Part shown: positions 11,050 through 64,000 of the stretch, piece after piece
Position numbering within the stretch: the first letter of the stretch is position 1
Layout of the letters: each line of letters begins with the position of its first letter
Assembly (NCBI GenBank): GCA_018902915.1
Contig: JAHIPS010000016.1
Location: 4,368 to 68,367, forward strand
Direction of reading: 5' to 3'
Length of the DNA stretch: 64,000 nt
Source: Candidatus Omnitrophota bacterium
GTDB taxonomy: Bacteria > Omnitrophota > Gorgyraeia > Gorgyraeales > Gorgyraeaceae
The notes under the pieces: generated by a model
Databases searched by the model: none
Seen by the model: the letters and a program-made list of their open reading frames with translations, nothing else
What the model was told of the DNA's origin: nothing
Made by a program: the position numbers and the translations under genes

Positions 11050-11050
11050 A

Positions 11051-11203
11051 TCAACCTGCCAGATTTTTGTAATATCTCGCGTCTTTTTGCGAGACATTGC
11101 TCCTATTATTAAAAATCCTCAAAAGCGGCAAGGCCAGGAAAGCTAGTGCCCCCAGAAAACCTGTCTTCAAAAACTCTCCCCGTGTAATCTTCCTCTTTAA
11201 CAT
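11051..11203 (-). CDS. 50-aa ORF with Tat/Sec-like signal sequence only (hypothetical)
   Basis: AAGGAGG SD 5 nt before ATG 11203; MLKRKITRGEFLKTGFLGALAFLALPLL.. resembles a degenerate RRxFLK signal. Its stop TGA overlaps the next start (TGATATG). Confidence 0.35.
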   Translation of the reverse strand: MLKRKITRGEFLKTGFLGALAFLALPLLRIFNNRSNVSQKDARYYKNLAG

Positions 11204-11218
11204 CCCTGCCTCCTTACA

Positions 11219-11270
11219 TTGTTCAAGGCTAAGCCTTGGACAGGCCTGTCCAAGGCTTAGCCTTGAACAA
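11219..11270. repeat. perfect 52-bp palindrome with nested 15-nt mini-hairpins
   Basis: ttgttcaaggctaagccttggacagg|cctgtccaaggcttagccttgaacaa. The arms are exact reverse complements with no spacer, and each arm contains CAAGGCT(A/T)AGCCTTG. Confidence 0.9.
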
Positions 11271-11283
11271 TAGAATAATGACC

Positions 11284-12258
11284 TCATTGCCACTTGCCAG
11301 GTATAGTGTGGTTACAAAACTTGCACTTGTCTTCGACTATATTATACTCCAGGATCATATATCCGCGCCTTGCAATAACAATATTTTTACACATAGGGCA
11401 ATAGGTATTATTGCCTTTGTGGCCTGGCACATTGCCCACATACGTATAATGGATGCCTTTTGAGATCGCGATATCCCTTGCCAGCGTCAACGTCTCCTCT
11501 GGTGTCGGCGGAAGATTCTTTAACTGATACATGGGCCAGAACCTTGAAAAATGTAACGGCACCTCTACCCCTACGTTTTCAACTATCCAGTCGCAAAGCC
11601 TTAAAAAATCCTCCTTAGTGTCATTATATGTCGGCACCACAAGATTCGTAAGCTCTACCCACACGCCCTCTCTTTTCATCGTAACTATTGTATCCAGGAC
11701 TGGCTTGAGCGTGCCCTTTGGCACAGTCTCATAAAATTTCTCTGTGATGCCTTTTAAATCAATATTCGCAGCGTCGACAAAACTAACTGCCTCTTTTAAA
11801 GGTCCTGGGTTTATGTATCCGGCTGTCACCCACACATTTAAAAGATTATTTTTATGCGCCAATCTTCCGGTGTCAGCAGCGTATTCAAAAAATATAACTG
11901 GATCAGAATATGTATAAGCAATTGTCCTGCATTTAGCAGCTATTGCCTGGTTCACTACTTCTTGAGGCTGGAGGTCGATGTTGCGCGTATTCTCTGGCTC
12001 TCTCTGGGATATTTCCCAGTTCTGGCAATACATGCAATGGAGATTACACCCGGCAGTCGCAATAGAAAACGAACTGCTCGACGGTAAGTAATGAAAAAGC
12101 GGTTTTTTCTCAATGGGATCCACGTGCACTGCGCAGGGTTTTCCATATACGAGTGTCTGGAGCTTCCCGCCTACGTTCATACGAGCGAGGCAATCGCCTC
12201 TATCTCCGCTGCCGAGCTCGCATCCCCTCGGGCACAATAAACATTTAACCTTACTCAT
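11284..12258 (-). CDS. AmmeMemoRadiSam system radical SAM enzyme
   Basis: 324 aa; N-terminal Cys cluster CLLCPRGC, radical-SAM CNLHCMYCQNWEISQ, PflA-like core. Adjacent to the Memo/AMMECR1 fusion. Confidence 0.85.
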   Translation of the reverse strand: MSKVKCLLCPRGCELGSGDRGDCLARMNVGGKLQTLVYGKPCAVHVDPIEKKPLFHYLPSSSSFSIATAGCNLHCMYCQNWEISQREPENTRNIDLQPQEVVNQAIAAKCRTIAYTYSDPVIFFEYAADTGRLAHKNNLLNVWVTAGYINPGPLKEAVSFVDAANIDLKGITEKFYETVPKGTLKPVLDTIVTMKREGVWVELTNLVVPTYNDTKEDFLRLCDWIVENVGVEVPLHFSRFWPMYQLKNLPPTPEETLTLARDIAISKGIHYTYVGNVPGHKGNNTYCPMCKNIVIARRGYMILEYNIVEDKCKFCNHTIPGKWQ

Positions 12259-22457: not shown

Positions 22458-22645
22458 AAATAAAAATCCCCACAGATGCCGTGTAAAAGGTCGCTTTTTG
22501 AACCCATTTGACAAGTGGGTGCCCTCTTAAGCGCTTGATGTTCCCTTGCCGCTAGCGACCAGGTATACAGCCGCGCCTAAAGTTAGGCTCCCTATATAAT
22601 GGTGTTAGCTCAAAAACTTCCTTTCACCACGCACATCGCAGGGAT
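22458..22645 (-). ncRNA. candidate structured RNA (~190 nt, rod-like; possibly 6S/SsrS) or long structured rarA leader
   Basis: ORF-free gap. The consensus promoter sits just upstream. The 5' CCCUGCGAUGUGCGUGGUGAAAGG pairs with 3' CCUUUUACACGGCAUCUGUGGGG. Inner helices are UUUUUGA/UCAAAAA, ACCAUU/AAUGGGU and UUAGGCGC/GCGCUUAA. It ends in AUUUUUAUUU. Confidence 0.4.
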
Positions 22646-22651
22646 ATGTAT

Positions 22652-44785: not shown

Positions 44786-48814
<4,029 letters not shown>

Positions 48815-48816
48815 TT

Positions 48817-51800
48817 ATGTACACGCAGAACGAAAAACTGATCCCGGTTTACATCGAAGACGAGATGAAGAATTCCTACCTCACTTACGCCATGAGCGTA
48901 ATCGTAGGAAGGGCCCTGCCTGATATCCGCGACGGTCTGAAGCCGGTCCACAGGCGCATTCTTTACGCGATGATGGATCTGGGCCTGGAGCACAATAAGC
49001 CGTATAAGAAAAGTGCTCGCATAGTTGGAGAATGTTTTGTTAGAGACACGCTTGTGTTAACCGAAAAGGGTTTGATTCCTATCCAAAATATTAGACGAGG
49101 AGACAGGGTGTTTACGCAACATAGCTTAAACCCTGTTACGCAGTTATATGAGATGCCAAAGAGAGAGCTTTTAAAAATTAGGCTTGACAATGGAACTCAC
49201 AATACAGTTACGCCTTCACAGAAATTTAAGGTGCTAGATAAAAATTTAGAATTTATTTGGAAAGAGGCAAAAGAATTAACCAGAGAAGATTATATTGTTA
49301 CAAGAGCTCATTATCCTGAAATTAAGGGTCCAGCGAAGCTGAACAAAAGCGTTGATATAAAAAAGCACCCTACTTATCTTAATGAAAATATAGCGTATGT
49401 GTTAGGTTTTTTGTTGTCAGATGGATCTGTGGAAAAATCTAACGGAAGACAGCGCAACAGGATGCGTTTTGATTCTTGCAGCGAAAGTATTTTAGAAAAA
49501 GTACGTTCAATTTTCAAACAAGAGTTTGATTATGAACCAAAGATTGAGGTGAAAGCATCTAGAGGCGTCACAAAGCACGGGAAGCCACTTAAAAAGATGT
49601 ATTCTATAAGGATCAACAGGAATCATATCAACAATTTCTTTATGTTAAATTTTAATCTCGAAGGCTGCAAAGCAAAGACTAAAGAAATCCCGCAGCAGCT
49701 ATATGTGTCCCCAAAGGAAGTAATATTTGCTTTTGTTTCCGGGTTAGTCGAAGGCGATGGTTCTATCCATCGCAGGAGAAACGTCATACATTATGGTTCG
49801 ATTTCCGAACAACTTATAGATGGGTTGCTAATACTTTTACAACATCAGGGTATTTTTGGTAGGAAATATAAGGCGAAGAAGACAAATTCTAGTTTTGTTT
49901 TAGGAAGGAAGGTCAAAGGCAAGGAAACATTTTATTCTTTAGAATTTAAAGGGTCTAACGCACTGTTGTTGGTCTCCAAAATTAACTGTGTTCAGGCGCT
50001 GAAACAGAGCAGGTTATTTGGTATATCTCTTAAACGGACGATTCCTTCAAGGCATGACCTTATTCCTTATGCAGGGGCTAATGTTTTTGCTGAATTGAGC
50101 ACAAGGCATATTGGGAGTGGCTGGTATCAAGATCTAAGCGGTGATAAATTCGGAAAGATAGGCCCGCCTCTTTCTACTTTTGTTGATGGCATAGTGGAGA
50201 ATAAAATTTATTTTTCAAAAATCGCTTCTATAGAAAAAGCTACGTCGCAGGAGACTTTCGACATACAAGTCGAAGGCGAGCACGAGTTTATTGCTAATGG
50301 CATGGTCTCTCATAATTGTCTTGGCAAATATCATCCGCACGGCGATACCGCTGTCTATGATTCGCTTGTCAGGATGGTGCAGAATTTTTCATTGAGGTAC
50401 CCTCTTATCGACGGTCAAGGCAATTTTGGCAGCGTCGACGGAGACGCTGCGGCTGCCATGAGATACTGCGTCGGCGGCGACTCTTTGATTGTGACAGAAA
50501 AAGGACTGCAAAGAATAGAGAAAATTCCGCATTATTCGAAAGTTTCTTTTAAGGCATTGTCAGCAAACAATAAAATAAATCATGTCTCAGAATGGTTTGA
50601 TTCGGGGGAACATCCGACAAAAACAATCAATACCTATAGAGGGTTTAGTTTATGCGGAAGCCTTAATCACCCTGTGCTGATTTGGCAAAAAGGGGGCGGC
50701 ACGAAGCCGCAGTTTAAATGGAAGTTACTGGACAAGATCAAAAAGGGTGATTATGCTGTAATTAGTAGAAATACTTCGCTGTTCCCTAAAAAAGAACCTT
50801 TTTTAATACCGTATCATCCGGAACTCAAAGGGGCTAGAAGAAACCACAGGCTTCCCGCCTTCATGAGCAAAGACCTTGCTTTTATTTTAGGAGCGGTGGT
50901 TTCAGAGGGTAATATTGATAAAAAGAAAATCGGTTTTTGTAATAACGACGATGTTTTTCTCAGAAAATTTAAAGAGAGTTTTAGAAAAGTATTCCCGGAT
51001 TGCAGGCTTCACGAATTTGTTAGAAAGCCGGTAGGGTATACAAAGAAGAATTATACTTCTTTAGAGATTCATTCACGCCATATTGTAGAATTCCTGAGCA
51101 ATCTTGGCCTTAAAGCAGGCACGGCAAAAGATAGAGCCGTGCCAGAAATTATATTTTCCTCGTCAAAGACATCAATAGCTTCTTTTCTGAGAGGATATGC
51201 GGAGGGGGATGGCAGCGTATACATGTCTTCTTCCTTGAAGAATATAGAAATTGTTTTTATATCGGTCAGCAAAAGGTTAATGCAAGAACTACAGATTTTA
51301 TTATTGAGGTTCGGGATAGATTCTTCCTATAGATGGCAAAGGACAAGAAATATTTTTAAATTATTTATACACGGACACAACAATCTCAATTTATTCAAAG
51401 ATCAGATAGGTTTTCTTACAAAACGAAAGCGTAATAAGCTAAGAGAAATTTGCGGTAGAAACAAAAGCGGCTGGGTTATGTCAAAGACAGATTTTGTGCC
51501 GTATGTTTCCGATTATATTAGAAGCAATGGTTACACAGGACACAGAGAGTGGCTTAGAAAACATAATATTGATAGATATACAAAGATAGAGAAATGCTGG
51601 GGAACTTTGAAGAAAATACTAAACAAAGAAGATAGGCAGTTGTATCAAATGTTAAAGAAAAATAAATATATTTTTGATCCCGTTATGTCTATAGAAGATA
51701 CAGGGCTGCAAAGGGTTTATTCCATAAAAGTAGATAGCCCCTGTCATTCATTTATATCGAACGGATTTATAAGTCACAATACAGAAGCGCGCATGGCTGC

Positions 51801-53844
51801 CATAGCAGATGAACTGCTCGAGGATATAGACAAGGATACAGTAGATTTTGTACCGAACTTTGACGAGTCTTTAGAAGAACCCAGCGTTTTACCGGCAAGA
51901 CTCCCTAATCTTTTAGTAAACGGCTCGAGCGGCATAGCAGTGGGCATGGCGACAAACATCCCGCCCCACAATCTTACCGAGATAGTGGACGCAGTAGTAA
52001 AGGTGATCTCTGAGCCAGATGTGTCCATAAAGGATCTGATGAAGATAGTAAAGGGCCCGGATTTCCCAACAGGCGGGATCATCTGCGGCAGGGACGGTAT
52101 AAAATCAGCGCATGAAACAGGAAGGGGCAAGCTAAGGCTTCACGCAAAGGCGGCTATAGAGCAGCAAAAAGGCAATAAAGAATCCATTGTCATAACAGAA
52201 ATCCCCTACCAGGTAAATAAATCAAAGCTCATAGAAAATATTGCTGACCTTGTGCAGGATAAAAAACTCGAGGGCATCTCTGACATAAGGGACGAGTCTG
52301 ACAAAGAAGGTATGAGGGTTGTCATAGACTTAAAGCGCGACCAGAACGCCCAGATCATCCTGAACCAGCTCTACAAGCGCACGCAGATGGAGACAACGTT
52401 TGGCGTGATCATGCTCGCGCTCGTCGACGGCAAACCAAGAGTTTTAAACCTAAAAGAGATTCTCGAAGAATATATAAAACATCGTCAGATCATAGTAAGG
52501 CGAAGGACCCAGTTTGAATTAAACAAGGCAGAAAAACGCGCGCATATCTTAGAAGGCCTTAAGATAGCCGTAGACCAGATAAACAAGATCATAAAGACGA
52601 TCAGAGAGTCAAAGGATGCCAAGGTCGCAAAAGACAGGTTAATGGAAAACTTTGACCTCTCGGATGTTCAGGCGCAGGCGATCTTAGAGATGCAGCTGCA
52701 GCGCCTGACAGCGCTTGAGAGGGACAAGATCGAAAAGGAATACCTGGAGCTTATAAAAAAGATCGAGATGTTAAATGCGATTTTAAAAAGCGAGAAAAAG
52801 ATTTTGGAGATCGTGAAAAACGAGGCGCTGGAATTAAAAAAAGTTTACGGCGACGAGCGAAAGACAGAGATAGTGGCAAAGGTCGAGGACATAGATATAG
52901 AGGACCTAATAGCAGAAGAAGACATGGTAATCACAATAAGCCACGCCGGTTACATAAAGAGGCTGCCCATAGGTTCTTATCGTAGCCAAAAAAGAGGGGG
53001 CGTGGGCGTAACAGGCATTGACATGAAGGACGAGGATTTTGTGGAGCACTTGTTTGTCGCATCCACGCACGAGCACATACTTGTTTTTACAAACACAGGC
53101 AAGGTCTTCTGGTTAAAAGTCTACGAGATACCTCAGGCGAGCCGCGCAGCCAGGGGTAAAGCGATAGTGAATCTTTTGCAGCTTGGCCAGGGCGAGCAGG
53201 TCTCTGCGTGCGTGAGGGTAAAGGAGTTTGAGGAAGGAAAATTTCTCGTGATGGCGACCAAGAACGGTTTGATCAAAAAGACAGATCTTATGGCGTATTC
53301 AAACCCGAGAAAAGGCGGCATAATCGGCATAACAATAGAAAAAGGCGACGAGCTTATAGAAGTAAAGTGGACTGACGGAAAGCAGGAGATGATCCTTGCG
53401 ACAAACCAGGGCAAGGCCATTAGATTTGCGGAGTCACAGGTAAGGAATATGGGAAGAGGCGCAAAAGGTGTAAAAGGAATCCGCCTTGGCAAAAAGGATC
53501 TGGTAATCGCGATGGAGCTCGCGAGAAAAGACGCCACGATCCTCACAGTTACATCACAGGGCTTTGCGAAGCGCACGCTTGTTGAACAATATAGAAAACA
53601 ATCCCGCGGCGGTAAAGGTATAAAGAACGTAAGTGTTACAAATAAGAACGGCGAGGCAGTGGGCCTGAGGATAGTAAATGACAAAGATGAACTCATGGTC
53701 ATGACAGAAAAAGGCATGGTCGTCCGCTGCCCGGTAAAAGATATACGCGCCACTGGAAGAGCAGCCCAGGGCGTCCGCATCATAAAACTCGACTCAGGCG
53801 ACAAGGTCTCTGCGATCGCCCGCGTCATACCTGAGGAAGAATAG
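48817..53844 (+). CDS. gyrA: DNA gyrase subunit A, interrupted by two inteins
   Basis: 1675 aa; ..[10 protein letters not shown]/[428 aa]/[29 protein letters not shown]/[438 aa]/TEARMAAIA.. then tower, coiled-coil and beta-pinwheel CTD. 809 aa spliced. Confidence 0.96.
49033..50316 (+). mobile_element. GyrA intein 1 (428 aa, LAGLIDADG) inserted in the QRDR-equivalent segment
   Basis: [13 protein letters not shown] (TGT 49033) ... [10 protein letters not shown] (AAT 50314-16) + Cys+1. [14 protein letters not shown] and [14 protein letters not shown]. Insertion after the residue equivalent to E. coli D72. Confidence 0.9.
50467..51780 (+). mobile_element. GyrA intein 2 (438 aa, LAGLIDADG) at the classic post-catalytic-Tyr site
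   Basis: [16 protein letters not shown] (TGC 50467) ... [11 protein letters not shown] (AAT 51778-80)/[18 protein letters not shown] and [14 protein letters not shown]. Blocks FDSGEHP.., [10 protein letters not shown] and [19 protein letters not shown] resemble the Mxe GyrA mini-intein as I recall it. Confidence 0.9.
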
Positions 53845-53850
53845 CCACAC

Positions 53851-53928
53851 GTCCCCATCGTCTAGTCTGGCCTAGGACATCAGATTTTCGATCTGACGAC
53901 ACCGGTTCGAATCCGGTTGGGGACGCCA
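53851..53928 (+). tRNA. tRNA-Glu (UUC), CCA encoded
   Basis: GTCCCCATCGTCTAGTCTGGCCTAGGACATCAGATTTTCGATCTGACGACACCGGTTCGAATCCGGTTGGGGACGCCA; anticodon loop TTTTCGA. Confidence 0.95.
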
Positions 53929-53986
53929 TCAATTCGGACACACCTGGACAGCGCTTCTTTATCATCTTATCTTCAATGATTATATA

Positions 53987-54184
53987 TGGACAGAAGTTAC
54001 GCTTCTAAAAGAGACTTCAAAAGCCATTTTAATAGAGTTTGATTATAGAAGAGCATGGTTGCCGAAGGCATGGATTTTGAGAATTAAGCGAGGCAAAGAC
54101 AAATCTTGTCATCGCGAGCCCCAAAAGGGTGAAGCAACCTCTATTAAAATATCCGAATATTACTGGACCAAGAAATTCCAATAA
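53987..54184 (+). pseudogene. small phage-like ORF lacking an in-frame canonical start
   Basis: Frame reads WTEVTLLKETSKAILIEFDYRRAWLPKAWILRIKRG..YYWTKKFQ*. The only nearby ATG (53986) is offset by one base (ATGG), suggesting a 1-nt indel or a non-canonical start. Confidence 0.35.
54107..54141. repeat. short hairpin element family 3, copy 1
   Basis: tGTCATcGCGAG-ccccaaaaggg-tGAAGCAAcc; same flanks as the copy at 60168. Confidence 0.6.
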
Positions 54185-54333
54185 AACCCTCTACAATCTA
54201 CAAGTGGGCCCATTATCATTATATGCCATGTGTTAAAATCGGCAATCGCATAAGATTCAAGGAGCAAAAGGTAGAAGAATGGCTCAAAAAGAGAGAAAGA
54301 AAAGGAAGAAATGCCTATAAAATGTCCCCATGA
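54148..54333 (+). pseudogene. excisionase/AlpA-type HTH remnant
   Basis: ..IPIKPSTIYKWAHYHYMPCVKIGNRIRFKEQKVEEWLKKRE.. resembles HTH_17 excisionase-family proteins. There is no ATG/GTG/TTG before the helix-turn-helix, and the first ATG (54223) would remove it. Confidence 0.4.
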
Positions 54334-54556
54334 AAACTCTTCCAGAACCCCCTATTCTGTGATATACTATATATAGAATATACATGTCTGCCAAATTAGG
54401 CCTTAGGGATTAAGGAGAGGTTGTTTTTTTACGTGCATTTTTGCTGGCATTAAAAAAGTATTAAGTTTCTTTTTATTGCCGCTATTTCTTTTTATTGATC
54501 TAATCTACTCCGCAAGGTAACTAGTTGAGTCAAAAAACCTGTTGCCTAGTCAAATT

Positions 54557-57500
54557 ATGTTAAAGTTCAAAAAGCATAATAAATTTAAAATCGCATCTCT
54601 GTCTTTTATAGCAAGCGCTAGCTTGTTATTTACCAATGCGTTATGCTCCTATCCTGCTCCTGAAGATCTTTTAAGAATGCCCGCAGGAGACGAGGAGACT
54701 TATCAACGTCTCCTGCATGGACAAATGAACAATCCTCATTTGTCAGCTAATAAATCTAAAGATTTAACTCGGGAATCAGAAACTATTAGAAAGATTGGGT
54801 TAGATCTTGCGCTTATCCAGCGTATGAAAAGCAAACAACGCAATTCCTTAATAGCTGCTTTTGAAAAAGCTGAAAGAGCAAGTAAGGATTCCTCGGACAA
54901 CGAACTAACCGAAGAGGATATAGAGTTTTTCAAGGTTTATGGTGAATTATTCAATGAGGAATATTTCGAGAAAGGAACTATTTCTTCGTACAAGAATTAT
55001 GGTACATTTCCTGGACTTATTGAGCCTCGCATCGAGACAATCATCAAGGAGCTAGGACTTAAAGCTGGGGATAGAGTTCTAGATGTTGGCTGCGGTAATG
55101 GAGACTATGTAAAACTGTTAAGATTGAGTGGAATTGACGCTAAAGGAATAGAGATCTCAACTTACGTCTTAGGAAAAGCAGATAAAGATACCAGAAAACA
55201 TTTATTTCTATTAGATCAATTGGATTTGTTCGATGAGTTCGAATCAAAAAGCTTTGATTTGATCCTGTTAAAAGATATATTAGAACATATACCAGAAGAA
55301 GTTCTTCCACGTTTTTTGTCTACCATAAAGAAGCTGGGAAAAAAAGCACTTATTACTGTGCCTCTTGCAGATAATGAGGGCAGATTCTTAAACCCGGATG
55401 ACAACCAGGACTTAACGCATGTAGTTAGGAGAGGAAGGAACTGGTGGCTTGAGTCTTTAAATTCAGATTGCGAAGATACGGATAATATAAATTTAGCATT
55501 TAAGAAAGAGAAGGCCGATGGAACACTTTGCGTAATTGCGTCTTTGGAAAGCAAGGAATCTATTGACAGAGGCGCAGATAGTACGTTATTCAACACTACC
55601 GGACCTATAAAAATAGCTTTAATGGGAACTGCAATGATAAGAGCAGAACCCATAAAGAAAAGCGACTATTATAAAAGCAAGATCCAGAAAAAGTTTTTGG
55701 AACCACCGATTGGCGTATATAGATTGCAACATTTTCTGCAGGAAATGTTTGCAGATCAAATAGAAGAAGGCAAACTAATCATAGATGTGTTTGATCCCAG
55801 TTTTCTCTCTGCAACAGATAGCCTCCCATCATTTTTTTCTAAAGTGCGGTCCGAAGGATATCATGTTATCGGATTCAGTCCGATAAGGGTCCTTTTAGGA
55901 GAAGACCTCTTTTTTATGAGCAGAGTTTATAAAGAAGCTCTTGGCTCTGGTGTCCGCCCTTTATTTATTTCTGGAGGAAACGAAGCCTCAATTAATAGTC
56001 AGGTTTTATTCGATACGATGCCATGGATGGATTTTTGCATATACGGCCTTGGAGAGCCTGTTTTACAGAACATTCTCAACGAAGTATTTAGTAGTCCTGC
56101 GAAACAGTTTACAAGGAAAAATTTTTATAATGTGCCAGGACTTATCTATTATAAAGACTCCAAATTATTTCGGAATCCTTACAAGGCTTCTCATGAAGAA
56201 ATTAAACACCTTTCAAACTACACCCCATTAAACATACCTTACCAGGATTATTGGGCTCTTGCCAACACTAGTGTTGGCAAGATAAAAGGACTCAGGCATA
56301 CTAACGTGATAAGAATATTTATGAGTAACTATTGTCCTTATAACTGCGCCTTTTGTAGTGACCATGCTATTGGTAGGGCAGTTTTTGGTAGAGATATAGC
56401 TCCTGTAACTGCAGCGGAGTTTGGGACCATTATCAAAACGCTCTATCAAAAAAAAGGGGTGGAAGGCATATATTTCAATGATGATGACATGTTTGTTGAT
56501 AGAAAAAGGGCTCGTGAGACTCTAAAAGAAATTATCAGAATGAAAGAAAATGGAGAAATCCCTGCTAATATGAAATTTTATGGTCAAACGCGAGTAGACA
56601 GAATTACCGAAGAATTATTAGATTTGGCGAGAAAAGCGAGATTTGTTTATCTGGGTTTTGGCGTTGAATCTTTTTCTGACGAAAGCTTGTCTGCTCCAGA
56701 TATGAACAAAGGATACAAGGCTAAGATAGCTTTTGATAATGTAAAGCGTTCCCTAGAAAAAAGAATCCCTATTACTAATATTAATTTACTATTGTTTCAC
56801 CCTACTATATCAAGAGCATCTTTTATTACAACAACTGAAAAAACAGTAGAACTATTGCATGAATCATCGAAGCATCGGGCGAAACTGTCGGTAAACAGTT
56901 TTCCTGTTATTGAATCATATGTAGGCGCTCCAATAAATGAACTAGCAAAAGCTAAGGGTTGGCCACTAGAAAAAGAAAGCATAACCCATAATGGGAAAAC
57001 ATGGGAATATACTGTAAATTATCTCCCTGTCGATAAAGAAATGCGAAGTGTGGTTGAAAATCAAAGACTGCTAAAAGAGTTCCAGGGTGTAATGAAAAGA
57101 CTTGCCGAAGACAAAAGATGGCCGGGGACAACTGTATCTAGGAGCATAGGAGTAAATGGCTTGGCAATGTTTATGGCTGCTTATAGGATTCTAGGCATCA
57201 ATAACAGAGAATCATCTGTATCTATAGAGGATATGGAAGAGTTGATATGGAAATTAATCGAGACATTCCACTATGTAGAAGAAACTGCTAAGATTCTTTC
57301 AACTCAGAATGCAAACATTGTATTTACACAGTATAACCAAAAATTTATCTTCCGCAGAGGTTCAATGCCTTTGTCAGAAATCCCTTCTTTTGTAACTGCA
57401 GCTCTAGGTGAAAAATGCCCCAGAGAAACATTGATTTCTTTTAGGAATGCAAATTATTTAGATATCGAGCAAGCCTTACAGGGGGTTCTTTCTGGAGAGG

Positions 57501-59986
57501 TAAATAGTTTACAAGAGGCGTTTTCAAAATACGGTATGCCTGCTTATGAATACCCTAACTTTAAAAAAGTGTTGTTAATTGCTCCGTGCGGAAACTACGA
57601 TGGAACACCATTAAAAACAGTCGTTCCACACCTAGGCCTGGAAAGAATAGCACATTATGTTTTGAGAAGCGCTCCTGATGTAGACTGTAGGGTGTTTAAT
57701 CCTAATATAGTTGGGCGCGATAGGTTAAAAAAAGTGATTGAAGATGAATTTTTTGACGTAGTGGGGTTTAGTTTTCTTCCAGTTACGCTTAAAAACGATT
57801 CCCCTATGATCGATCTTGTAGCCAAGGAGTCACCAAACTCTATCTTAATAGCTGGCGGGATTAATATCAGAAAATTGCCTCACCAAGAAATCTTTGGAAT
57901 AATTCCGCTTGATGTCTTTATAGCTGGTCCTGGAGAGGCGACCTTTTGTAAAATTTTGGAGCAATTGCCACCCTCTGCTTCTGGCAAAAAAAAGAGCGTA
58001 AAAATCAAAAAACTTGAAGAAATTGCCAATCTTTATATTTATAATGAAAATCGGCTCAGCGCTACTAAACAACATCCCTTCCATTTTGTACAAATAGAAG
58101 AAAGCGAGCTACGAAGAGATATTGCTTACACAACCCCTGATCTGATTCATGGAGTAACATACGAAGTTGCAACCCAAGACACTCACAGCGAAATTTTACC
58201 TTTTGATATGGTAGGAACTAGGCGTTTATATCTTAAGAGCACAGATAGATGCAAAGCAAATTGCATTTTTTGCTCTGCGCCTAAAGAAAAAAACGAATCT
58301 GAGAGCATGGATACTTTGATAGAAGCTATGAGGAATGTCAGAGGAGAATATGATAGTGTGCATTTTTCTGACAATGACTTTCTGGTTGACCACGCAACAG
58401 TAAGAGACCTTTGCTATAAGATTATCGAGGCGGGATTAGAAAAGATTCCCAAAGTATGCAAATCACGCACTGATGAAGTAAATCCAGAAATATTAACACT
58501 CTTAGCGAAGTCTGGCTTTAGAATAGTGACCTATGGAGTAGAATCATTTGATAATAGCGTCCTTCGCAGGATGAGAAAAGGAACGACGCAGGAGCAAAAC
58601 GAAAAAGCTTTAAATATGACTCTAATGGCCGGGATTAAGCCTGGGATGGACATGATTTTCTTTTCTCCTTGGGAGACCAAAGAGACGCTTCTTCATTCGG
58701 TTGAGAAAGCTGTAGAATATATAGAGAAAGGAGCTTATCTTAATTGCACAACCGCCATGCACACTCAACTTGGCGATAAATTTAGTTCTGAAGGAAAAAA
58801 ACAGCAAATTCGCTACCAAGAGATTGATTTTACAAGCACAGGAAAAACTTTTCTTAATCCGGAGCGCATAATTCTATCCGCAGATATGGAAGATTTGAGA
58901 AAAAGAGTTTTGGATAGGCGTGCAATACTTGAAGAGTTAGCTAAGAAGAAATATGCAGCTACACACGGAAAATATGTCTCCTTTTCAACTTTATCGCTAC
59001 TTTTTTGCAAGGCTTTTTACGAAGTTCTCTTAGACGAGGATGTTGAAAAAAAAATAGAGAAAGAGTATAAAGTAAAGATAGACCAAATTAATACATTAAT
59101 AGACAGGACAATTACATTAGAAAGCCAAAGAATAGTAATCTTGCCCAAAGCCTCTTCCGGTGCTTCTACTTCTGCAATAATTCACAACATTTCAATAAAT
59201 TCTCAAGAAATACCGAATATTGATAGCAGAAAAGATGCTTATAATGCGTGGCGTAGAAAAGTCCGTGATCGTGAAATGTTTAGCGAAGCTGAGCTTAAAA
59301 GAAAGAAGGTTTTTTATCGTTATGGAAAAAAAGCCAGTGATAGATTACCCTCGGGAGAGGGGCATTATGGTATGGCTGCTGCCCTTTTTTTAAAGCCTGC
59401 TGGAGCATTAAAAGATAACATTAATATTATTTACGACGCCTTTAGAGGAACGCAAGCATATAGAAATAATAAATTGAGACTGTACAATTACGATAGTATT
59501 CATCACTCCTTAAATATATACGCCAGATTTGAAGACAAGCCGATTGCAGAAGACTTACAGCTTAAACATATGTTGAATTTGCAAGAATCTATCAAAGGCA
59601 CCTCGAGCTTCTTAATATATTTCGAAGGGGTTAACTGGAATAGCAATGACCATAAATTTGCCTTGCAGGCTTATCCTGGAAAACAGTTTTTGGATATAGA
59701 AAGTAAACTAAGAAGAGAAAATTATGATCGTATTGAATTTTCATTTGCTACAATTGTTGGAGAGTTAACACAACAAGAGCTGGATGAATTATTATCTTTA
59801 GTTAATATGTATGCTGAATTACCCATTGGTCTTAAAGCAGTAAAAGAAGTGAGTTTAGTACATGCCAAGGATGAGATGCTTGCAGATTCTATCTTTGTTA
59901 AAGATGTTGCTTTGCAACATACCGAAGCAATTAAAGTTATAGATATAGATCGGATGAACCGAATTATTATAGAAACTGGATTGTAA
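54557..59986 (+). CDS. 1,809-aa multidomain protein: N-terminal signal/anchor, class-I SAM methyltransferase, two tandem B12-binding-type radical SAM modules, unassigned C-terminal region
   Basis: VLDVGCGNGDY (55076-55108). HVIGFS..ISGGNEAS..YGLGEPVL then CPYNCAFC (56333-56356). DVVGFS..IAGGIN..AGPGEATF then CKANCIFC (58250-58273). I recognise no motif in the last ~330-400 aa. Confidence 0.75.
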   Translation: MLKFKKHNKFKIASLSFIASASLLFTNALCSYPAPEDLLRMPAGDEETYQRLLHGQMNNPHLSANKSKDLTRESETIRKIGLDLALIQRMKSKQRNSLIAAFEKAERASKDSSDNELTEEDIEFFKVYGELFNEEYFEKGTISSYKNYGTFPGLIEPRIETIIKELGLKAGDRVLDVGCGNGDYVKLLRLSGIDAKGIEISTYVLGKADKDTRKHLFLLDQLDLFDEFESKSFDLILLKDILEHIPEEVLPRFLSTIKKLGKKALITVPLADNEGRFLNPDDNQDLTHVVRRGRNWWLESLNSDCEDTDNINLAFKKEKADGTLCVIASLESKESIDRGADSTLFNTTGPIKIALMGTAMIRAEPIKKSDYYKSKIQKKFLEPPIGVYRLQHFLQEMFADQIEEGKLIIDVFDPSFLSATDSLPSFFSKVRSEGYHVIGFSPIRVLLGEDLFFMSRVYKEALGSGVRPLFISGGNEASINSQVLFDTMPWMDFCIYGLGEPVLQNILNEVFSSPAKQFTRKNFYNVPGLIYYKDSKLFRNPYKASHEEIKHLSNYTPLNIPYQDYWALANTSVGKIKGLRHTNVIRIFMSNYCPYNCAFCSDHAIGRAVFGRDIAPVTAAEFGTIIKTLYQKKGVEGIYFNDDDMFVDRKRARETLKEIIRMKENGEIPANMKFYGQTRVDRITEELLDLARKARFVYLGFGVESFSDESLSAPDMNKGYKAKIAFDNVKRSLEKRIPITNINLLLFHPTISRASFITTTEKTVELLHESSKHRAKLSVNSFPVIESYVGAPINELAKAKGWPLEKESITHNGKTWEYTVNYLPVDKEMRSVVENQRLLKEFQGVMKRLAEDKRWPGTTVSRSIGVNGLAMFMAAYRILGINNRESSVSIEDMEELIWKLIETFHYVEETAKILSTQNANIVFTQYNQKFIFRRGSMPLSEIPSFVTAALGEKCPRETLISFRNANYLDIEQALQGVLSGEVNSLQEAFSKYGMPAYEYPNFKKVLLIAPCGNYDGTPLKTVVPHLGLERIAHYVLRSAPDVDCRVFNPNIVGRDRLKKVIEDEFFDVVGFSFLPVTLKNDSPMIDLVAKESPNSILIAGGINIRKLPHQEIFGIIPLDVFIAGPGEATFCKILEQLPPSASGKKKSVKIKKLEEIANLYIYNENRLSATKQHPFHFVQIEESELRRDIAYTTPDLIHGVTYEVATQDTHSEILPFDMVGTRRLYLKSTDRCKANCIFCSAPKEKNESESMDTLIEAMRNVRGEYDSVHFSDNDFLVDHATVRDLCYKIIEAGLEKIPKVCKSRTDEVNPEILTLLAKSGFRIVTYGVESFDNSVLRRMRKGTTQEQNEKALNMTLMAGIKPGMDMIFFSPWETKETLLHSVEKAVEYIEKGAYLNCTTAMHTQLGDKFSSEGKKQQIRYQEIDFTSTGKTFLNPERIILSADMEDLRKRVLDRRAILEELAKKKYAATHGKYVSFSTLSLLFCKAFYEVLLDEDVEKKIEKEYKVKIDQINTLIDRTITLESQRIVILPKASSGASTSAIIHNISINSQEIPNIDSRKDAYNAWRRKVRDREMFSEAELKRKKVFYRYGKKASDRLPSGEGHYGMAAALFLKPAGALKDNINIIYDAFRGTQAYRNNKLRLYNYDSIHHSLNIYARFEDKPIAEDLQLKHMLNLQESIKGTSSFLIYFEGVNWNSNDHKFALQAYPGKQFLDIESKLRRENYDRIEFSFATIVGELTQQELDELLSLVNMYAELPIGLKAVKEVSLVHAKDEMLADSIFVKDVALQHTEAIKVIDIDRMNRIIIETGL

Positions 59987-60167
59987 CTAATCTTCTGGTG
60001 CCCAAACAGGTGCCCAACCAAAGAGAATATAGAGTCAACAAAAGTAAACAAAAGTGAACTATATAGAAAGTCTAACCCCTTATCAAATATAGACTTAACT
60101 CCATAACTCCTTAAATCCCAATAAGTTATAAAAATCCCCTTAAAAGAATCCATCCCTCTCCGCCACG

Positions 60168-60203
60168 TGTCATTACGAGGGCATGAAATGCCCGAAGCAA
60201 TCC
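60168..60203. repeat. short hairpin element family 3, copy 2
   Basis: tGTCATtaCGAG-ggcatgaaatgccc-GAAGCAAtccc. Confidence 0.6.
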
Positions 60204-60305
60204 CACACCTGCCCCTAAAACTTAGAATAAAACTTACTATGTTACCCTACCAACTGGTAGATTATCGAACCTAACAATTTAACAACAAATAAGCTGTTAA
60301 AATAC

Positions 60306-60334
60306 TTGACAGCTGTAAATCTTTACAGTATACT
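60306..60334 (+). promoter_or_regulatory. lexA promoter with embedded SOS box
   Basis: TTGACA (60306-11), 17-nt spacer containing CTGTaaatctttACAG (60313-60328, CTGT-N8-ACAG), -10 TATACT (60329-34). The ATG lies 7 nt downstream. Confidence 0.7.
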
Positions 60335-60341
60335 TAAGGGT

Positions 60342-60977
60342 ATGCAAAGCAGGGTTCTTACAAAGCGCCAGACTCAGATATTCGACTTTATTTTATCCAA
60401 TATAGATAAATTTGGATACCCGCCTTCTATCCCAGAGGTCCAGAAAAGATTTTCTTTTAAATCTCCAAATGCTGTTCAATCTCACTTTGATGCCCTTGAG
60501 CGCAAAGGTTATGTTTCCCGCAGGCCCCATAAATCAAGAGGCATCGAGGTATTAGTTCACACTACACAAAAAGAAAATAATAATAGTACTACAATACCAA
60601 TACTAGGAAATATATCGGCAGGAAATCCTATCCTTGCACAGGAGAATATTGAAGGAGAGCTTGTTGTTGACAAGTCTTTAGCAAAGAACCCCGCAGGAGT
60701 TTTTGTATTAAAAGTCAAAGGGGACAGCATGATCGAAGCCGGCATATTGGAGGGAGATCATGTGGTGGTCAGGCAACAGCAAAGCGCAGAAGAAGGAGAT
60801 ATAATAGCCGCACTTATTGAAGATGAGGCAACTGTTAAAAAATTCTATAAAGATAAAAGCGCCAATAGAATAGTTTTACAGCCGGCAAATAAAAATATGG
60901 AGCCAATATATGTTGACTTATCGTATAATAATTTTATGATATTAGGAAAGGTAACAGGAGTTATTAGAAAAATATAG
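60342..60977 (+). CDS. lexA: LexA repressor (S24 peptidase)
   Basis: MQSRVLTKRQTQIFDFI..GYPPSIPEV wHTH. Ala-Gly cleavage site in GNISAGNPILAQENIEG. KGDSMIEAGI (Ser) and ATVKKF (Lys) catalytic dyad. Confidence 0.9.
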   Translation: MQSRVLTKRQTQIFDFILSNIDKFGYPPSIPEVQKRFSFKSPNAVQSHFDALERKGYVSRRPHKSRGIEVLVHTTQKENNNSTTIPILGNISAGNPILAQENIEGELVVDKSLAKNPAGVFVLKVKGDSMIEAGILEGDHVVVRQQQSAEEGDIIAALIEDEATVKKFYKDKSANRIVLQPANKNMEPIYVDLSYNNFMILGKVTGVIRKI

Positions 60978-60988
60978 GAGAATTAAAT

Positions 60989-62188
60989 ATGCCAGTTTCA
61001 GTTTATCAAATAATCAAAGAGCGGTTAAAGAATGATTGTCTATTAAAAGAGGGACAGGAGCAGTTAACCCTTTTTGATATTTTTAATTTGCCTACACTAG
61101 AACGCCCCCCGGTTATTTATCCCATAACTATATTAAAAAGGCAATCTCTTAGAAAAGCTGGTGATAGGCAAGAGTTACTGCAAATCCAGAGCAGAAGATA
61201 CATGGGCAATAAATTTAAATTATCAAGCTTTATAAGGGAAATCATTGACAGGGAATGCGAAGAATCCAGCAGTATTTGTGACATATTTGCTGGGACCGGT
61301 GTGGTGGGGAATGGATTCAATAAAAATGGCAGAAAAATAATAAGCAATGAGCTACTCTATAGCAATTATGTTTCTCTTTATGCATGGCTTTCTCCTGAGC
61401 AGTTTGATATGGGGAAGATAGCAGACTATATCCGGATGTTAAACGAAATCAATTCTGTTAAGGAAAATTATGTCTCACAGAATTTTGGAGGCACGTATTT
61501 TACGATTGAGAATGCGAAAAAGATAGGGGCTATAAGGGAAAAGATAGAAGAATTGGAAGTAAATTTTAAAGAAAAATGCATTCTTTTAACTTCTTTACTT
61601 TACGCAATGGATAAGGTTGCTAATACATGCGGTCACTACGATGCATTTAGGAGAACCTTAGATACAGTTACGCCAATAAAATTATTGATTCCGGATGTAC
61701 AACAGGACAAAAACAGCCAAAATGAGATATATAACGAAGATGCAAATCAGCTTGTACGTAAGATAAAGATGGATGTGCTTTATATAGATCCTCCTTATAA
61801 TTCCAGGCATTATTGTGACAGCTATCATTTATTAGAGAATATTATAACATGGAAAAAACCAGAGGCATTCGGAGTAGCCAAGAAGATGGTGCGCAGCGAC
61901 TTGAAGAGTCAATATTGCCTGAAAACAGCACCGAGGGTTTTTGACGATCTAATAAGAAATGCTAACTGCAGGTATATACTAGTTTCCTATAATAACATGG
62001 CAGGCAAGGGAAACAATCGTTCGAATGCCCGAATAAAAGATGAGGCAATGATCAGCAGTCTTTCCAAAAGAGGCAGGGTTAAAATCTTTGAAACTGGGTT
62101 CAAAAGTTTTACAACAGGAAAAAGCAAAATAGAAAACCATACAGAAAGAATATTTTTCTGTGAAGTATTAAGAAGTATTAAAGGGTGA
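60989..62188 (+). CDS. D12-class N6-adenine DNA methyltransferase (R-M modification subunit)
   Basis: 399 aa; RRYMGNKFKL, FAGTGVVG (motif I), LYIDPPYNSRHY (motif IV DPPY). AGGAG SD overlaps the lexA stop, with an 11-nt gap. Confidence 0.85.
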   Translation: MPVSVYQIIKERLKNDCLLKEGQEQLTLFDIFNLPTLERPPVIYPITILKRQSLRKAGDRQELLQIQSRRYMGNKFKLSSFIREIIDRECEESSSICDIFAGTGVVGNGFNKNGRKIISNELLYSNYVSLYAWLSPEQFDMGKIADYIRMLNEINSVKENYVSQNFGGTYFTIENAKKIGAIREKIEELEVNFKEKCILLTSLLYAMDKVANTCGHYDAFRRTLDTVTPIKLLIPDVQQDKNSQNEIYNEDANQLVRKIKMDVLYIDPPYNSRHYCDSYHLLENIITWKKPEAFGVAKKMVRSDLKSQYCLKTAPRVFDDLIRNANCRYILVSYNNMAGKGNNRSNARIKDEAMISSLSKRGRVKIFETGFKSFTTGKSKIENHTERIFFCEVLRSIKG

Positions 62189-62194
62189 AGTTTA

Positions 62195-64000
62195 ATGGCG
62201 CACGTTCAATGGTGTGTAGGCAATACTACATTAAGAGAAGCAGCGCGGCTTAAAGACGGCTTAAAGGTTCTTAAAGAACATTTTGATGGCGAACCCTGGA
62301 CATATGAAAATCAAAAGAGATTTTTGGAACTCTTACAGCAAGAAGGTATCTATGGACCAGCAGAAGCAAAAAGCAGTAAACAAATAGAACAACACGGAAG
62401 GATTTGGAGTTCGGCTTTTAATGAATTAGGATTTGCCACTTGTTATAAGAAAGGAAATAAATATGTACCAAGTGGTGCAAGGATCACCAAGGCAGGAGAG
62501 GCATTACTTTCTGATAATTATGTAGAAGAAGATGTATGGCTGCGCCAGCTTTTAAAAGTTCAATTTCCCAATTCTCTCCCTCAGAAATCAGAGAATCAAT
62601 ATCCCGGATTTAATTTATTGCCATTTCAGGCGGCACTTAGAATTATTAAACAATGTGATGGTGTTTCAAAAGATGAAGGGTTTATTGTAAATACTTTAAA
62701 GGCGATGGGTGATGTTAATAAAGCAGTCGGGTCTATTCAAAGATATAGAAAAGGATTAGATTTGGCGCGCGAAGAAGGTAGGGATGCTATTAGAAAATAT
62801 GTTATTCAGCAACAGTGTGATATGGCAAAGGGTCTTTATAGGGATGAAGTCGATGAACGCCTAAAATACATAAGAAGCTATTATAAAAGCAAGAGCCGCG
62901 CTAAAGATGGAAGATTGCTGTATGCGATAGTTAAAGGCGGCAAAGGATCAAGAACTTCTGAAGCAATTAGATTGGCAGGCGACCTCAAAGATTTAAAGAA
63001 AAAAGGTGCTCCTTCAAAAGAAATGGAAGGGCGCTTCCTTTCTTATTTTCTTATCTTGAAGTCCAACGCGTGGCGAGATTATATTGATGCGACTGCAAGA
63101 TATTTCAGGATGGGCGGCATATTGACGATTCGCCGTTCAAGGATAAATATAGCCGAGACTCATAGAGATATAGCGGATTGGATACTTTCGCAAGATTGGG
63201 TAATAAAGAAAAATGGCGACTATCTTGAGTATTTACACGATCATGCTTTACCAGTACTTCCTCAAGATAAAATAGACTACCTTAGGGGTAAAACAGATAG
63301 AGTTCTTGATGAGGTAATGCAACTTTCAAAATCGACCGCAATAAAAGTGGAACCAAAAATAGTAAAAATAGATAAAGAAATTGCGGATCCTCTGCTATTA
63401 AGAAAACAACTGCTCAACTTAACTGAAACAAAACGAGAATTAAAAGAATATGAATACATGTTATCGTTGCATCGGGGAAAAGATACCGTAGATAAGATCG
63501 TAGATTATTTCGATTCTATCAATCGCAAGGATATTTTAGGTTATAGGCCTACACATTTTGAATGGAATGTATGGCGTGGTTTTCTAGCTATAGATAAACT
63601 GCTAAAGTTACCACACGAATGCAGAAATTTCGACATCGATGATGATCTTCAGCCAAGAAATTTTGCGCCAGGCGGCAAACCCGATATGGTATTTTACTAT
63701 AAAGATTATGTGTTGGTGGTTGAAGTTACGCTTTCAGTGGGAGAGACACAATATAATACCGAACATGAACCTGTACCTCGACATGTTGTAAGGGTTATAG
63801 AGCAAGAGAAAAGTAAAGATGTCTATTCTTTATTCATCGCCCCTAAAATACACATCAATACGGCTATTCATTTCTACGCAAAGATGACATCAGCCCCACA
63901 TGTTAACTCGAACGGCGAAAAACTTTATCCTAAAATCATCCCTTTAACCTTAGATGATTATATATTACTGCTTAAGATATTTCAGGAGAAGAGATATTTA
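62195..64000 (+). CDS. AlwI-family (Type IIS/nicking-type) restriction endonuclease; 3' end runs off the window
   Basis: Not in the ORF track (open to the edge). Own translation: MAHVQWCVGNTTLREAARLKDGLKVL..ATARYFRMGGILTIRR..FEWNVWRGFLAI..DLQPRNFAPGGKPDMVFYYKDYVLVVEVTLSVGETQYNTEHEPVPRHV..YSLFIAPKI. This closely parallels N.BstNBI/AlwI-family blocks as I recall them. Confidence 0.8.
   Translation, partial: MAHVQWCVGNTTLREAARLKDGLKVLKEHFDGEPWTYENQKRFLELLQQEGIYGPAEAKSSKQIEQHGRIWSSAFNELGFATCYKKGNKYVPSGARITKAGEALLSDNYVEEDVWLRQLLKVQFPNSLPQKSENQYPGFNLLPFQAALRIIKQCDGVSKDEGFIVNTLKAMGDVNKAVGSIQRYRKGLDLAREEGRDAIRKYVIQQQCDMAKGLYRDEVDERLKYIRSYYKSKSRAKDGRLLYAIVKGGKGSRTSEAIRLAGDLKDLKKKGAPSKEMEGRFLSYFLILKSNAWRDYIDATARYFRMGGILTIRRSRINIAETHRDIADWILSQDWVIKKNGDYLEYLHDHALPVLPQDKIDYLRGKTDRVLDEVMQLSKSTAIKVEPKIVKIDKEIADPLLLRKQLLNLTETKRELKEYEYMLSLHRGKDTVDKIVDYFDSINRKDILGYRPTHFEWNVWRGFLAIDKLLKLPHECRNFDIDDDLQPRNFAPGGKPDMVFYYKDYVLVVEVTLSVGETQYNTEHEPVPRHVVRVIEQEKSKDVYSLFIAPKIHINTAIHFYAKMTSAPHVNSNGEKLYPKIIPLTLDDYILLLKIFQEKRYL

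Follow-up and report, generated by a model that had tools for sequence, protein, structure and literature searches.

A giant gene of an Omnitrophota bacterium predicted to join a class-I methyltransferase to two class-B-type radical-SAM modules

What can a single protein do with three catalytic units that all use S-adenosylmethionine (SAM)? The question is raised by a giant gene on the plus strand (54557..59986; 1809 codons plus stop, with an alternative TTG start at 54542) of a 64,000-nucleotide stretch of DNA from a Candidatus Omnitrophota bacterium (contig JAHIPS010000016.1), referred to below as the window. Judged from its sequence, the gene encodes one chain with three SAM-using catalytic units, namely a class-I methyltransferase (MT) and two radical-SAM modules (M1 and M2). 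Bacteria and a phage-like element carry all three predicted units together, and three anaerobic protists have the two radical-SAM modules. Class-B radical SAM enzymes catalyse chemistry that ranks among the most difficult in biology and are notorious for being poorly characterised, and two class-B modules together with a methyltransferase in one gene would amount to a compact three-step pathway that can be expressed singly.

Architecture of the giant gene

The open reading frame (ORF) of 5.4 kb runs unbroken from either start to the stop codon at 59986, as the original prediction had read it, and gene callers on two other assemblies chose the ATG at 54557, giving a product of 1809 amino acids (aa). 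The identical 1809-aa protein is found on three contigs, each from a different sample and assembly; a contig from SRR11548473 (L001) and one from ERZ24794672 (L002) equal the window at 100% nucleotide (nt) identity over 53912-60428 and 53881-60253, respectively. Four homologues, 44-51% identical to the window protein, are colinear with it through every domain junction. Because identical contigs and colinear homologues extend over all junctions, a chimeric or frameshift-joined ORF is very unlikely. An artefact, whether misassembly, frameshift-joined genes or a pseudogene with one working radical-SAM core, would be suggested by the metagenome-type source and by the shortness of the carrying contigs, which break at both ends of the unit; the agreement of three assemblies over 6.4-6.5 kb, the homologues spanning all junctions, and the invariance of both cysteine triads and of the core strands described below have largely refuted it, and we consider it scarcely credible.

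Domain limits were taken from hidden Markov models (HMMs) built on an alignment of the window protein with P0001-P0004 (A1) and mapped onto 155 collected relatives; two further alignments covered 16 M1-type proteins (A2) and M2-type proteins (A3). In A1 the conserved core comprises residues ~120-1490 and the ends are variable. The core begins with the class-I SAM-dependent methyltransferase domain (aa 120-335; 54914..55561), which was delimited by Pfam, PHROG and A1 and includes a conserved lead-in, ELTEEDxxF..Y..LF..EYF. Its motif I, VLDVGCGNGDY, starts at aa 174 (nt 55076), and the class-I signature VLDVGCGxG is invariant in A1. Methyltransf_23 matches aa 159-301 with 50 bits against a cutoff of 27, the Pfam families Methyltransf_31, _11 and _25 also score above cutoff (40, 38 and 35 bits), and PHROG 27380 matches aa 127-310 (E 3.8e-25).

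Module M1 (aa 341-899; 55577..57253), placed by HMM mapping, an AlphaFold2 (AF2) model, Foldseek and profile matches, combines a Rossmann-like domain of cobalamin type with a radical-SAM barrel and a C-terminal subdomain of helical/beta structure. Its [4Fe-4S] motif CPYNCAFC (C593-x3-C597-x2-C600; 56333..56356, with the three Cys codons at nt 56333, 56345 and 56354) is invariant in A1 and A2. Module M2 (aa 1001-1489; 57557..59023), placed by Pfam, alignment to M1 and profile matches, likewise has a B12-binding domain, a radical-SAM barrel and a C-terminal subdomain, and its [4Fe-4S] motif CKANCIFC (C1232-x3-C1236-x2-C1239; 58250..58273) is invariant in A1 and A3. Between the modules lies a domain of ~95 aa, designated LK (aa 906-999; 57272..57553), which was located by local HMM mapping over the 155 relatives. 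LK precedes M2-type modules in ~30 proteins and once follows M1 without M2 (P0006); from this pattern it is a recurrent, separable domain and more than a linker.

Pfam Radical_SAM scores 112 bits in two stretches (cutoff 29.5), the one in M2 (aa 1228-1383) covering model positions 3-164 of 166, and Pfam B12-binding is found in M2 at aa 1020-1133 (36.3 bits; cutoff 32.1). Ahead of the M1 core, Pfam gives just a weak Radical_SAM_N2 match, and B12-binding stays below cutoff. Of the Pfam matches anticipated by the original prediction, Radical_SAM twice, Methyltransf_23/11/25 and B12-binding for M2 were thus recovered, and B12-binding for M1 was not; the predicted positions of VLDVGCGNGDY, CPYNCAFC and CKANCIFC were all exact. 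M1 and M2 align over 457 aa, the Rossmann part among them, at 23% identity (E 5e-18), and at this level of similarity they are paralogous modules, derived from an old duplication or from the fusion of two diverged subfamilies and not from a recent repeat.

The M1-type profile matches MgmA (5.8e-11), AprD4 and the cobalamin domains of TokK and TsrM, while the M2-type profile matches MgmA (9ccb; 5.9e-19) and, spanning both domains, OxsB (6.5e-16). An AF2 model of M1 from the 16-sequence alignment reached a predicted local distance difference test score (pLDDT) of 87.6 and a predicted template-modelling score of 0.87, and its 14 best PDB matches in Foldseek were TsrM, OxsB, MgmA, AprD4 and TokK (template-modelling scores 0.53-0.64). 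As the matches of the M1 model agree with the profile matches of M1 and M2, both modules are of class-B type by fold, and the domain reading of the original prediction, with a methyltransferase, two B12-type radical-SAM units and an unassignable C-terminus, is supported by Pfam, profiles and model alike. M1 and M2 may bind and use cobalamin, for which this fold by itself is not decisive; class-B enzymes are not known to have a universal sequence motif for cobalamin use. The core strands YFNDDDMF and GVESFSDES in M1, and HFSDNDF and GVESFD in M2, are invariant in A1, and both Cys triads and the core strands are kept in all full-length tandem members down to 36% identity. Given this invariance and retention, both radical-SAM cores are under selection, and the expectation that both are genuine has held.

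The ends of the protein are of a different nature. The N-terminus (MLKFKKHNKFK-IASLSFIASASLLFTNALC-SYPAP, aa 1-35; 54557..54661), characterised by sequence and hydropathy, has a basic n-region, a 19-residue hydrophobic core and a small-residue ALC/SY c-region, with a hydropathy maximum (mean Kyte-Doolittle 1.69) at residue 12, and it contains the one hydrophobic segment of the protein. This n/h/c layout is that of a Sec signal, and the segment looks more like a cleavable Sec signal than a membrane tether; the signal- or anchor-like segment that had been noticed is present in the hydropathy profile, and the membrane tethering attached to it is not established. Nearly every bacterial mosaic relative starts in a similar way, in many cases with a clear AXA site. 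The three protist sequences show no signal peptide, and at least two of these appear N-terminally incomplete.

The C-terminal region (aa 1490-1809, 320 aa; 59024..59983) is an orphan. It consists of a short helical stretch common to relatives, a Ser-rich linker and then ~250 aa without a detectable homologue. In a word-indexed search of 5.8 billion clusters the 320 aa matched only themselves; there was no Pfam match up to E 5 and no PDB match by phmmer, no similarity to the C-termini of P0001 and P0002 by BLASTP, and no match by phmmer in the 155 collected relatives. A single-sequence AF2 model of the region (pLDDT 35.6) was unusable. At the corresponding position, relatives carry other, unrelated cassettes. 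An RNA-end-processing role was considered on the basis of HxT/S pairs (2H phosphoesterase-like) and a 'GGAVRRLL..DLDL' nucleotidyltransferase-like motif seen by eye in the C-termini of P0001 and P0002; it was unsupported and was dropped, as Pfam gave only MdcG (E 0.038) and DUF218 (1.5e-5), and the PDB only HEAT-like alphaRep noise.

Some relatives display a recurrent frame around varied enzyme cargo. P0001-P0003, P0016, P0045 and P0080 share a ~330-aa N-terminal domain behind the signal peptide, which carries ..LKGMTIHPxxPFRFDFIVDSGN.., and the extreme C-terminus of the frame carries the motif GGID(M/F)..GVDGFxPVIIxIxPI (also GGID...GFxPVIIxIxP); P0101, P0044 and P0071 are also among the proteins showing it. 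Neither part is recognised by Pfam or the PDB, and the window protein has neither. The two parts could be a sorting or secretion signal pair.

Relatives, genomic setting and transfer

A word-indexed search returned four relatives. Searching the tandem core with phmmer against 1.84 billion 50%-identity cluster representatives gave 12,935 matches at E <=1e-3, corresponding to the class-B superfamily, and 98 at <=1e-30; both modules are present in just five of those clusters (P0003, P0007, P0009, P0010 and P0013). The names that databases give to relatives with both modules are uninformative. M1 or LK-M2 alone occurs in many proteins, which are either ordinary enzymes of 520-640 aa or mosaics of 1-5.2 thousand amino acids (kAA), and domain mapping shows that the M1 and M2 types have been shuffled as domains through a large pool of multi-enzyme proteins with signal peptides. 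No relative of the gene was found in 185,579 species representative genomes; IMG/VR yielded no tandem relative and one methyltransferase-only match; the JGI metagenomes (241 M records) contained the P0002 contig only; and among GenBank phages and PLSDB plasmids no record exceeded 20% coverage of the protein. The searched literature contains no description of an MT with tandem class-B architecture. The original prediction had known of no described family with this combination: it is indeed rare and uncharacterised, but the mosaic pool, the protist relatives and the Omnitrophota preprints discussed below show that it is not an isolated oddity.

The three protist members are P0009 (KAH3743680.1 of Pelomyxa schiedti, named 'B12-binding radical SAM domain protein'), P0010 (KAJ4460428.1 / PAPYR_3461 of Paratrimastix pyriformis, on a 769-kb contig of nuclear size) and P0013 (a Mastigella eilhardi transcript). 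They carry the M1-M2 tandem with both Cys triads and share 36-38% identity with the window protein across 891 alignment columns; the Paratrimastix protein contains low-complexity inserts. In two of the three protists (P0009 and P0013) the order is M1-M2-Cys-rich-MT, with the methyltransferase at the C-terminus, and P0006 is arranged as M1-LK-Zn-ribbon-MT. Since the set is kept together even where the methyltransferase sits at the other end of the chain, it behaves as one functional unit. PAPYR_3461 was entered merely as 'radical SAM?', with a best match in Elusimicrobia, in a table of Fe-S proteins (PMC10703272, supplementary file 6), and the main text of the protist genome papers does not discuss the gene. 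The protist copies probably arose by lateral transfer from bacterium to eukaryote, and a spread over a bacterium, a phage-like element and two eukaryotic supergroups makes the family a clean candidate for inter-domain gene transfer in anoxic habitats. Culturable anaerobic protists, moreover, give an experimental route to a family that is otherwise confined to uncultured Omnitrophota and metagenomic fragments.

A distance tree has three clades, one formed by the protists, one by P0004 and P0007, and one in which the window protein groups with P0001-P0003. P0002 (3081 aa, with HEAT repeats and a kinase-like stretch; L003/L005 contig, 44-48 kb) is in moron position on a contig resembling a lambda-like temperate phage. 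Lambda-type tail genes (gpM/L/K/J-like, the gpJ-like one a tail fibre gene) and RadC lie on one side of it, and on the other a serine recombinase, with genes for a KAP NTPase and a DUF4062-HATPase_c_4 protein alongside. P0003 adjoins a gene of >5,400 aa, and P0008 is annotated as Candidatus Omnitrophica. P0154 (L091) is surrounded by ankyrin-repeat, split CAF1 deadenylase and actin-fragmin-kinase-like ORFs and a 2OG-Fe(II) oxygenase at a coding density of 0.79, a context that looks eukaryotic or giant-virus-like and not bacterial. On another contig (L093, 672-3537), the closest stand-alone M1-type gene overlaps a gene for a 418-aa radical-SAM protein with a weak UPF0004/MiaB-type N-terminus and is preceded by a NUDIX gene; these two radical-SAM genes may correspond to the tandem in unfused form.

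With regard to the host, the four best phylum-consistent DnaA matches (54-57% identity) are metagenome-assembled genomes of Candidatus Omnitrophota/Omnitrophica, and no closer genome is present among the 185,579 species representatives; by these matches the window is a stretch of divergent Omnitrophota chromosome. The gene order yidC-rnpA, dnaA-dnaN-gyrB-gyrA is followed by tRNA-Glu, and the rest of the window holds core genes. The guanine-plus-cytosine (GC) skew changes sign at ~40-42 kb (cumulative minimum), near rnpA/yidC and dnaA, which is consistent with a chromosomal replication origin inside the window.

The giant gene lies beyond this core region in an AT-rich tract whose left border is tRNA-Glu(UUC) (53851..53928, plus strand; ARAGORN; Rfam tRNA 60.5 bits). 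An excisionase-type HTH_17 frame (54148..54333, plus strand; Pfam E 1.5e-8, 35 bits) precedes the gene; it has no ATG, GTG or TTG before residue 26, the ORF listing gives just a 36-aa tail, and it is probably the decayed remnant of an integrative element that brought the giant gene. Downstream, all on the plus strand, follow a lexA-type repressor (60306..60977; Pfam LexA_DNA_bind and Peptidase_S24), a D12-class N6-adenine (Dam-type) methylase (60989..62188; Pfam MethyltransfD12 1.8e-30; PADLOC MTase_II) and an AlwI-family endonuclease (62195..64000, running off the window; Pfam RE_AlwI 1.7e-57; PADLOC REase_II). The lexA gene, which may be either a chromosomal copy or element-borne, thus sits between the giant gene and a Type II restriction-modification (R-M) pair, all in the same low-GC tract. 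The setting in accessory-type DNA beside tRNA-Glu and an R-M system was correctly anticipated. So was the AT-richness of the giant gene (GC 0.372 against 0.432 upstream), but low GC extends over the entire tract of 53929-64000 (0.371). At three loci, namely in the window and on L003 and L006, the gene lies 4-6 points of GC under its flanks.

The shorter contigs indicate where such a unit might end. Both begin inside tRNA-Glu, L001 at 53912 and L002 at 53881, and L002 leaves the window sequence 267 nt past the stop codon (60253/60254), its last 52 nt (6374-6425) being found nowhere in the window. Because both start in the tRNA and L002 diverges after the stop, a discrete unit of ~6.3 kb (~53.9-60.25 kb) with an alternative right-hand neighbour is suggested. 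No second copy of the tRNA-Glu 3' end was found within the window, no direct repeat of >=9 nt, and hence no att-like repeat, was found between the two junction regions, and no riboswitch or other Rfam element was found near the giant gene. The window copy lies in low-GC, probably acquired DNA at a tRNA gene, and the three-enzyme set is probably a self-contained, horizontally travelling chemistry.

Some other features of the window deserve mention. With four inteins in 64 kb, the core region is unusually intein-rich: gyrB (44798-48814; GyrB of 1338 aa) has one, gyrA (48817-53844; GyrA of 1675 aa) has two, with C...HN|C and C...HN|T junctions, and glmS (3294-6449, minus strand) has one, with Intein_splicing and LAGLIDADG_3 matches. 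A full-length 6S RNA is encoded at 22463-22647 on the minus strand (Rfam RF00013, 93.6 bits). At 9553-12258, also on the minus strand, a Memo-AMMECR1 fusion adjoins a 324-aa radical-SAM protein, forming an AmmeMemoRadiSam-type trio; the AmmeMemoRadiSam system is a lateral gene transfer candidate in Preaxostyla in the same supplement that lists PAPYR_3461 (PMC10703272).

Candidate substrates, site of action and rival explanations

Leads to the substrate come from fusion and neighbourhood partners of the separate units. LK-M2-type units neighbour a PNP_UDP_1 nucleoside phosphorylase (6e-24) and are fused to cytidylate kinase (9e-34), RmlD/epimerase (1e-18) and a DprA/SLOG-like domain (1.6e-24), with sub-threshold DeoC, PNP and uridine-kinase signals in addition. 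M1-type units have a NUDIX neighbour (3.8e-21) and are fused to WbqC (5e-35) and PIG-L. The nearest annotated methyltransferase relative (36% identity) belongs to a Pelagibacter-phage sugar-nucleotide cluster with a carbamoyltransferase and UDP-glucose/GDP-mannose dehydrogenase. OxsB, the best of the matches that extend over both domains of M2, is a nucleotide-modifying enzyme that rearranges deoxyadenosine phosphate. Taken together, these leads tilt weakly towards a nucleoside or nucleotide-sugar substrate and away from lipids and peptides.

The reading that we tentatively prefer, although we hold it at somewhat below an even chance, is that the three units act successively on one soluble substrate derived from a nucleoside, nucleotide or nucleotide sugar. 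Each radical module would catalyse a different reaction at an unactivated position, candidates being methylcobalamin-dependent C-methylation and rearrangement or dehydration as in OxsB and AprD4, while a methyl group of the conventional kind, on O, N or S, would come from the class-I domain. Location or partner, and not chemistry, would depend on the variable N- and C-terminal parts. SAM, Fe-S assembly and low-potential reductants are cytoplasmic. Since the three domains depend on SAM, on Fe-S loading and on a reductant of low potential, catalysis must be cytoplasmic, and for the same reason a Sec-exported location in the producer is biochemically implausible. The cytoplasm in question would be the producer's own if the N-terminus is a tether, and that of another cell if the protein is exported. 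The protist homologues would fit 'any anoxic cytoplasm' if their true N-termini also lack a signal peptide.

Several observations weigh against this sequential-modification reading. The substrate argument is drawn from relatives that are 30-35% identical to the window modules, and several of the domain matches fall below Pfam cutoffs. The best PDB sequence match of both modules is MgmA, a protein methylase. In the window, no gene of nucleotide or sugar metabolism adjoins the giant gene, a Sec-type signal peptide is hard to square with dependence on Fe-S, cobalamin and SAM, and the C-terminal third of the variable region has no assignable domain. The fold leaves cobalamin use unproven, because the fold relative AprD4 is annotated as a diol-dehydratase and not as a methylase; AprD4 also cautions against taking methylation for granted. 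Finally, the modules reach no named class-B subfamily: they score 40-87 bits against NCBIfam cutoffs of 250-775 in a comparison that included BchE, PhpK/Sden_1168, HpnJ, HpnR, MJ_0865/MgmA, ladderane rSAM, C-methylases of ribosomally synthesised and post-translationally modified peptides (RiPPs), KedN5, AprD4 and BzaD. The best scores, each in two stretches, were 87 bits for BchE (cutoff 481), 86 for PhpK (600) and 82 for Sden_1168 (575), and 30 stand-alone relatives of both module types likewise missed the curated cutoffs.

The rank of MgmA (9ccb) as best PDB sequence match of both profiles, at 5.8e-11 for M1 and 5.9e-19 for M2, is at the same time the principal argument for a modifier of proteins or peptides, in which the radical modules would C-methylate or cross-link residues of a protein or RiPP, like MgmA, Mmp10 and RiPP C-methyltransferases, and the class-I domain would add a methyl group. 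Weak NCBIfam matches that include MJ_0865 (an MCR glutamine methylase), rSAM_ocin_1 and ApyD point the same way, but their scores fall well short of the family cutoffs; no family member is adjoined by an ORF resembling a precursor peptide, by a protease or by a transporter, Pfam detects no RiPP recognition element, and both module types are fused to nucleotide and sugar enzymes and not to peptide-pathway ones, so that we judge a protein or peptide substrate unlikely. Generic class-B similarity of the same kind, again far below cutoffs, accounts for the weak NCBIfam matches to HpnJ, HpnR and rSAM_ladder_B12 which, along with CMAS (cyclopropane synthase) among the methyltransferase matches, recall the tailoring of lipids or an envelope polymer. 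Here an enzyme anchored to the inner membrane would repeatedly C-methylate isoprenoid or acyl chains or join them by C-C coupling, as do HpnP/HpnR, HpnJ, ladderane enzymes and tetraether synthases. The hydrophobic N-terminal segment would suit such an enzyme, and two of the partners of M1-type units, WbqC and PIG-L, belong to envelope-glycan metabolism. The single segment, however, looks like a cleavable signal, it is not seen in the three protist sequences (at least two of them apparently N-terminally incomplete), and no lipid-pathway gene adjoins or is fused to any relative examined; lipid tailoring appears distinctly unlikely. Both kinds of tailoring had been among the roles first proposed, that of lipids or an envelope polymer as the leading idea, and neither draws contextual support from neighbours or fusions.

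The nucleoside associations and the similarity to OxsB also recall antiviral nucleoside analogues, and the neighbourhood adds to this: the window copy lies in an islet with a Type II R-M system and lexA, and P0002 occupies its moron position together with the KAP NTPase, the DUF4062-HATPase_c_4 protein and a recombinase. A modified nucleotide or nucleic acid might accordingly serve anti-phage defence, phage counter-defence, superinfection exclusion or as a toxin, allied to the flanking R-M or defence genes. PADLOC gave no specific match (generic ones only, at ~25 bits), neighbours differ between loci, Pfam detects no nucleic-acid-binding domain, and retention in free-living protists argues for a metabolic benefit of housekeeping type; such a conflict system is improbable, and the functional tie to the neighbouring R-M genes that had been suggested finds nothing specific in PADLOC and is not repeated at the other loci. 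A bolder proposal takes the signal peptide at face value. The cassette would then be a portable synthase of a doubly radical-modified, methylated nucleoside or nucleotide-sugar analogue, exported by host-dependent Omnitrophota and their phages to act in the cytoplasm of other cells; the signal peptide and swappable N- and C-terminal delivery modules would serve this export, and the product would be of enough use under anoxia for unrelated anaerobic eukaryotes, the Archamoebae and Preaxostyla, to have acquired the gene laterally. We regard this as a long shot. If true, no radical-SAM effector would have been known to be exported before this one, and no class-B enzyme to be built in tandem.

Comparison with known systems

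The two-part plan of each module is common to the class-B structures MgmA (9ccb), OxsB (5ul2-4), TsrM (6wte) and TokK (7kdx) and to the fold relative AprD4 (6fd2), with profile matches of E 1e-4 to 6e-19 to those structures, and the modules are 12-17% identical to any solved class-B enzyme. Known class-B enzymes are single units, whereas the window protein combines two 23%-identical units with a class-I methyltransferase, LK and an orphan C-terminus. Among defence systems, PADLOC-DB v2 gave no system-specific match, the generic ones being mad2 in the methyltransferase region (25 bits) and PDC-M51A in the radical-SAM region (23 bits).

The established precedent for a tandem radical-SAM fusion that works as one enzyme is the FO synthase FbiC, a CofG-CofH fusion in which one chain with two radical-SAM domains generates two separate 5'-deoxyadenosyl radicals in one pathway (PMC11917521). 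Unlike the window protein, FbiC has no methyltransferase, and CofG/CofH are not among the best 25 of 54 NCBIfam matches of the modules, those listed being all B12-type. The domains of FbiC are not known to be of B12 type or to carry a Rossmann N-domain.

A second point of comparison is offered by the multi-enzyme long proteins of Omnitrophota (West-Roberts et al. 2023, bioRxiv 10.1101/2023.11.21.568195; 2026 preprint, 10.64898/2026.06.07.730766). These tile methyltransferase, Radical_SAM and HEAT_2 domains, 94% of the surveyed proteins have a signal peptide or transmembrane (TM) helices, and radical SAM falls in a sugar-metabolism co-occurrence module (10.64898/2026.06.07.730766); they are hypothesised in the long-protein preprint to be passengers of integrative elements, and an exported effector idea is also under discussion. 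The window protein resembles them in phylum and in its tiled enzyme domains of cytoplasmic type, its N-terminus may be of the same signal/TM-bearing kind, and relatives of both modules lie inside 1-5 kAA mosaics, one of which is annotated Omnitrophica. Iron-sulphur, cobalamin and SAM enzymes behind Sec-type signal peptides pose a paradox that bears on the role and site of the long proteins in general. The surveyed long proteins, however, have >=10,000 aa, so that the window protein, with 1809 aa and one hydrophobic segment, is at most a small relative. The surveys give radical SAM merely as a Pfam count, and the MT + M1 + LK + M2 cassette, its two module types and its non-bacterial occurrence are not described there. 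Already known, then, are the parts, i.e. class-I methyltransferases and class-B-type radical SAM enzymes, as well as the existence of signal-peptide-bearing multi-enzyme proteins in Omnitrophota; new are the MT + M1 + LK + M2 cassette itself, its two separately shuffled module types, its rarity, and the fact that a phage-like element and two anaerobic eukaryote lineages unrelated to each other carry it too.

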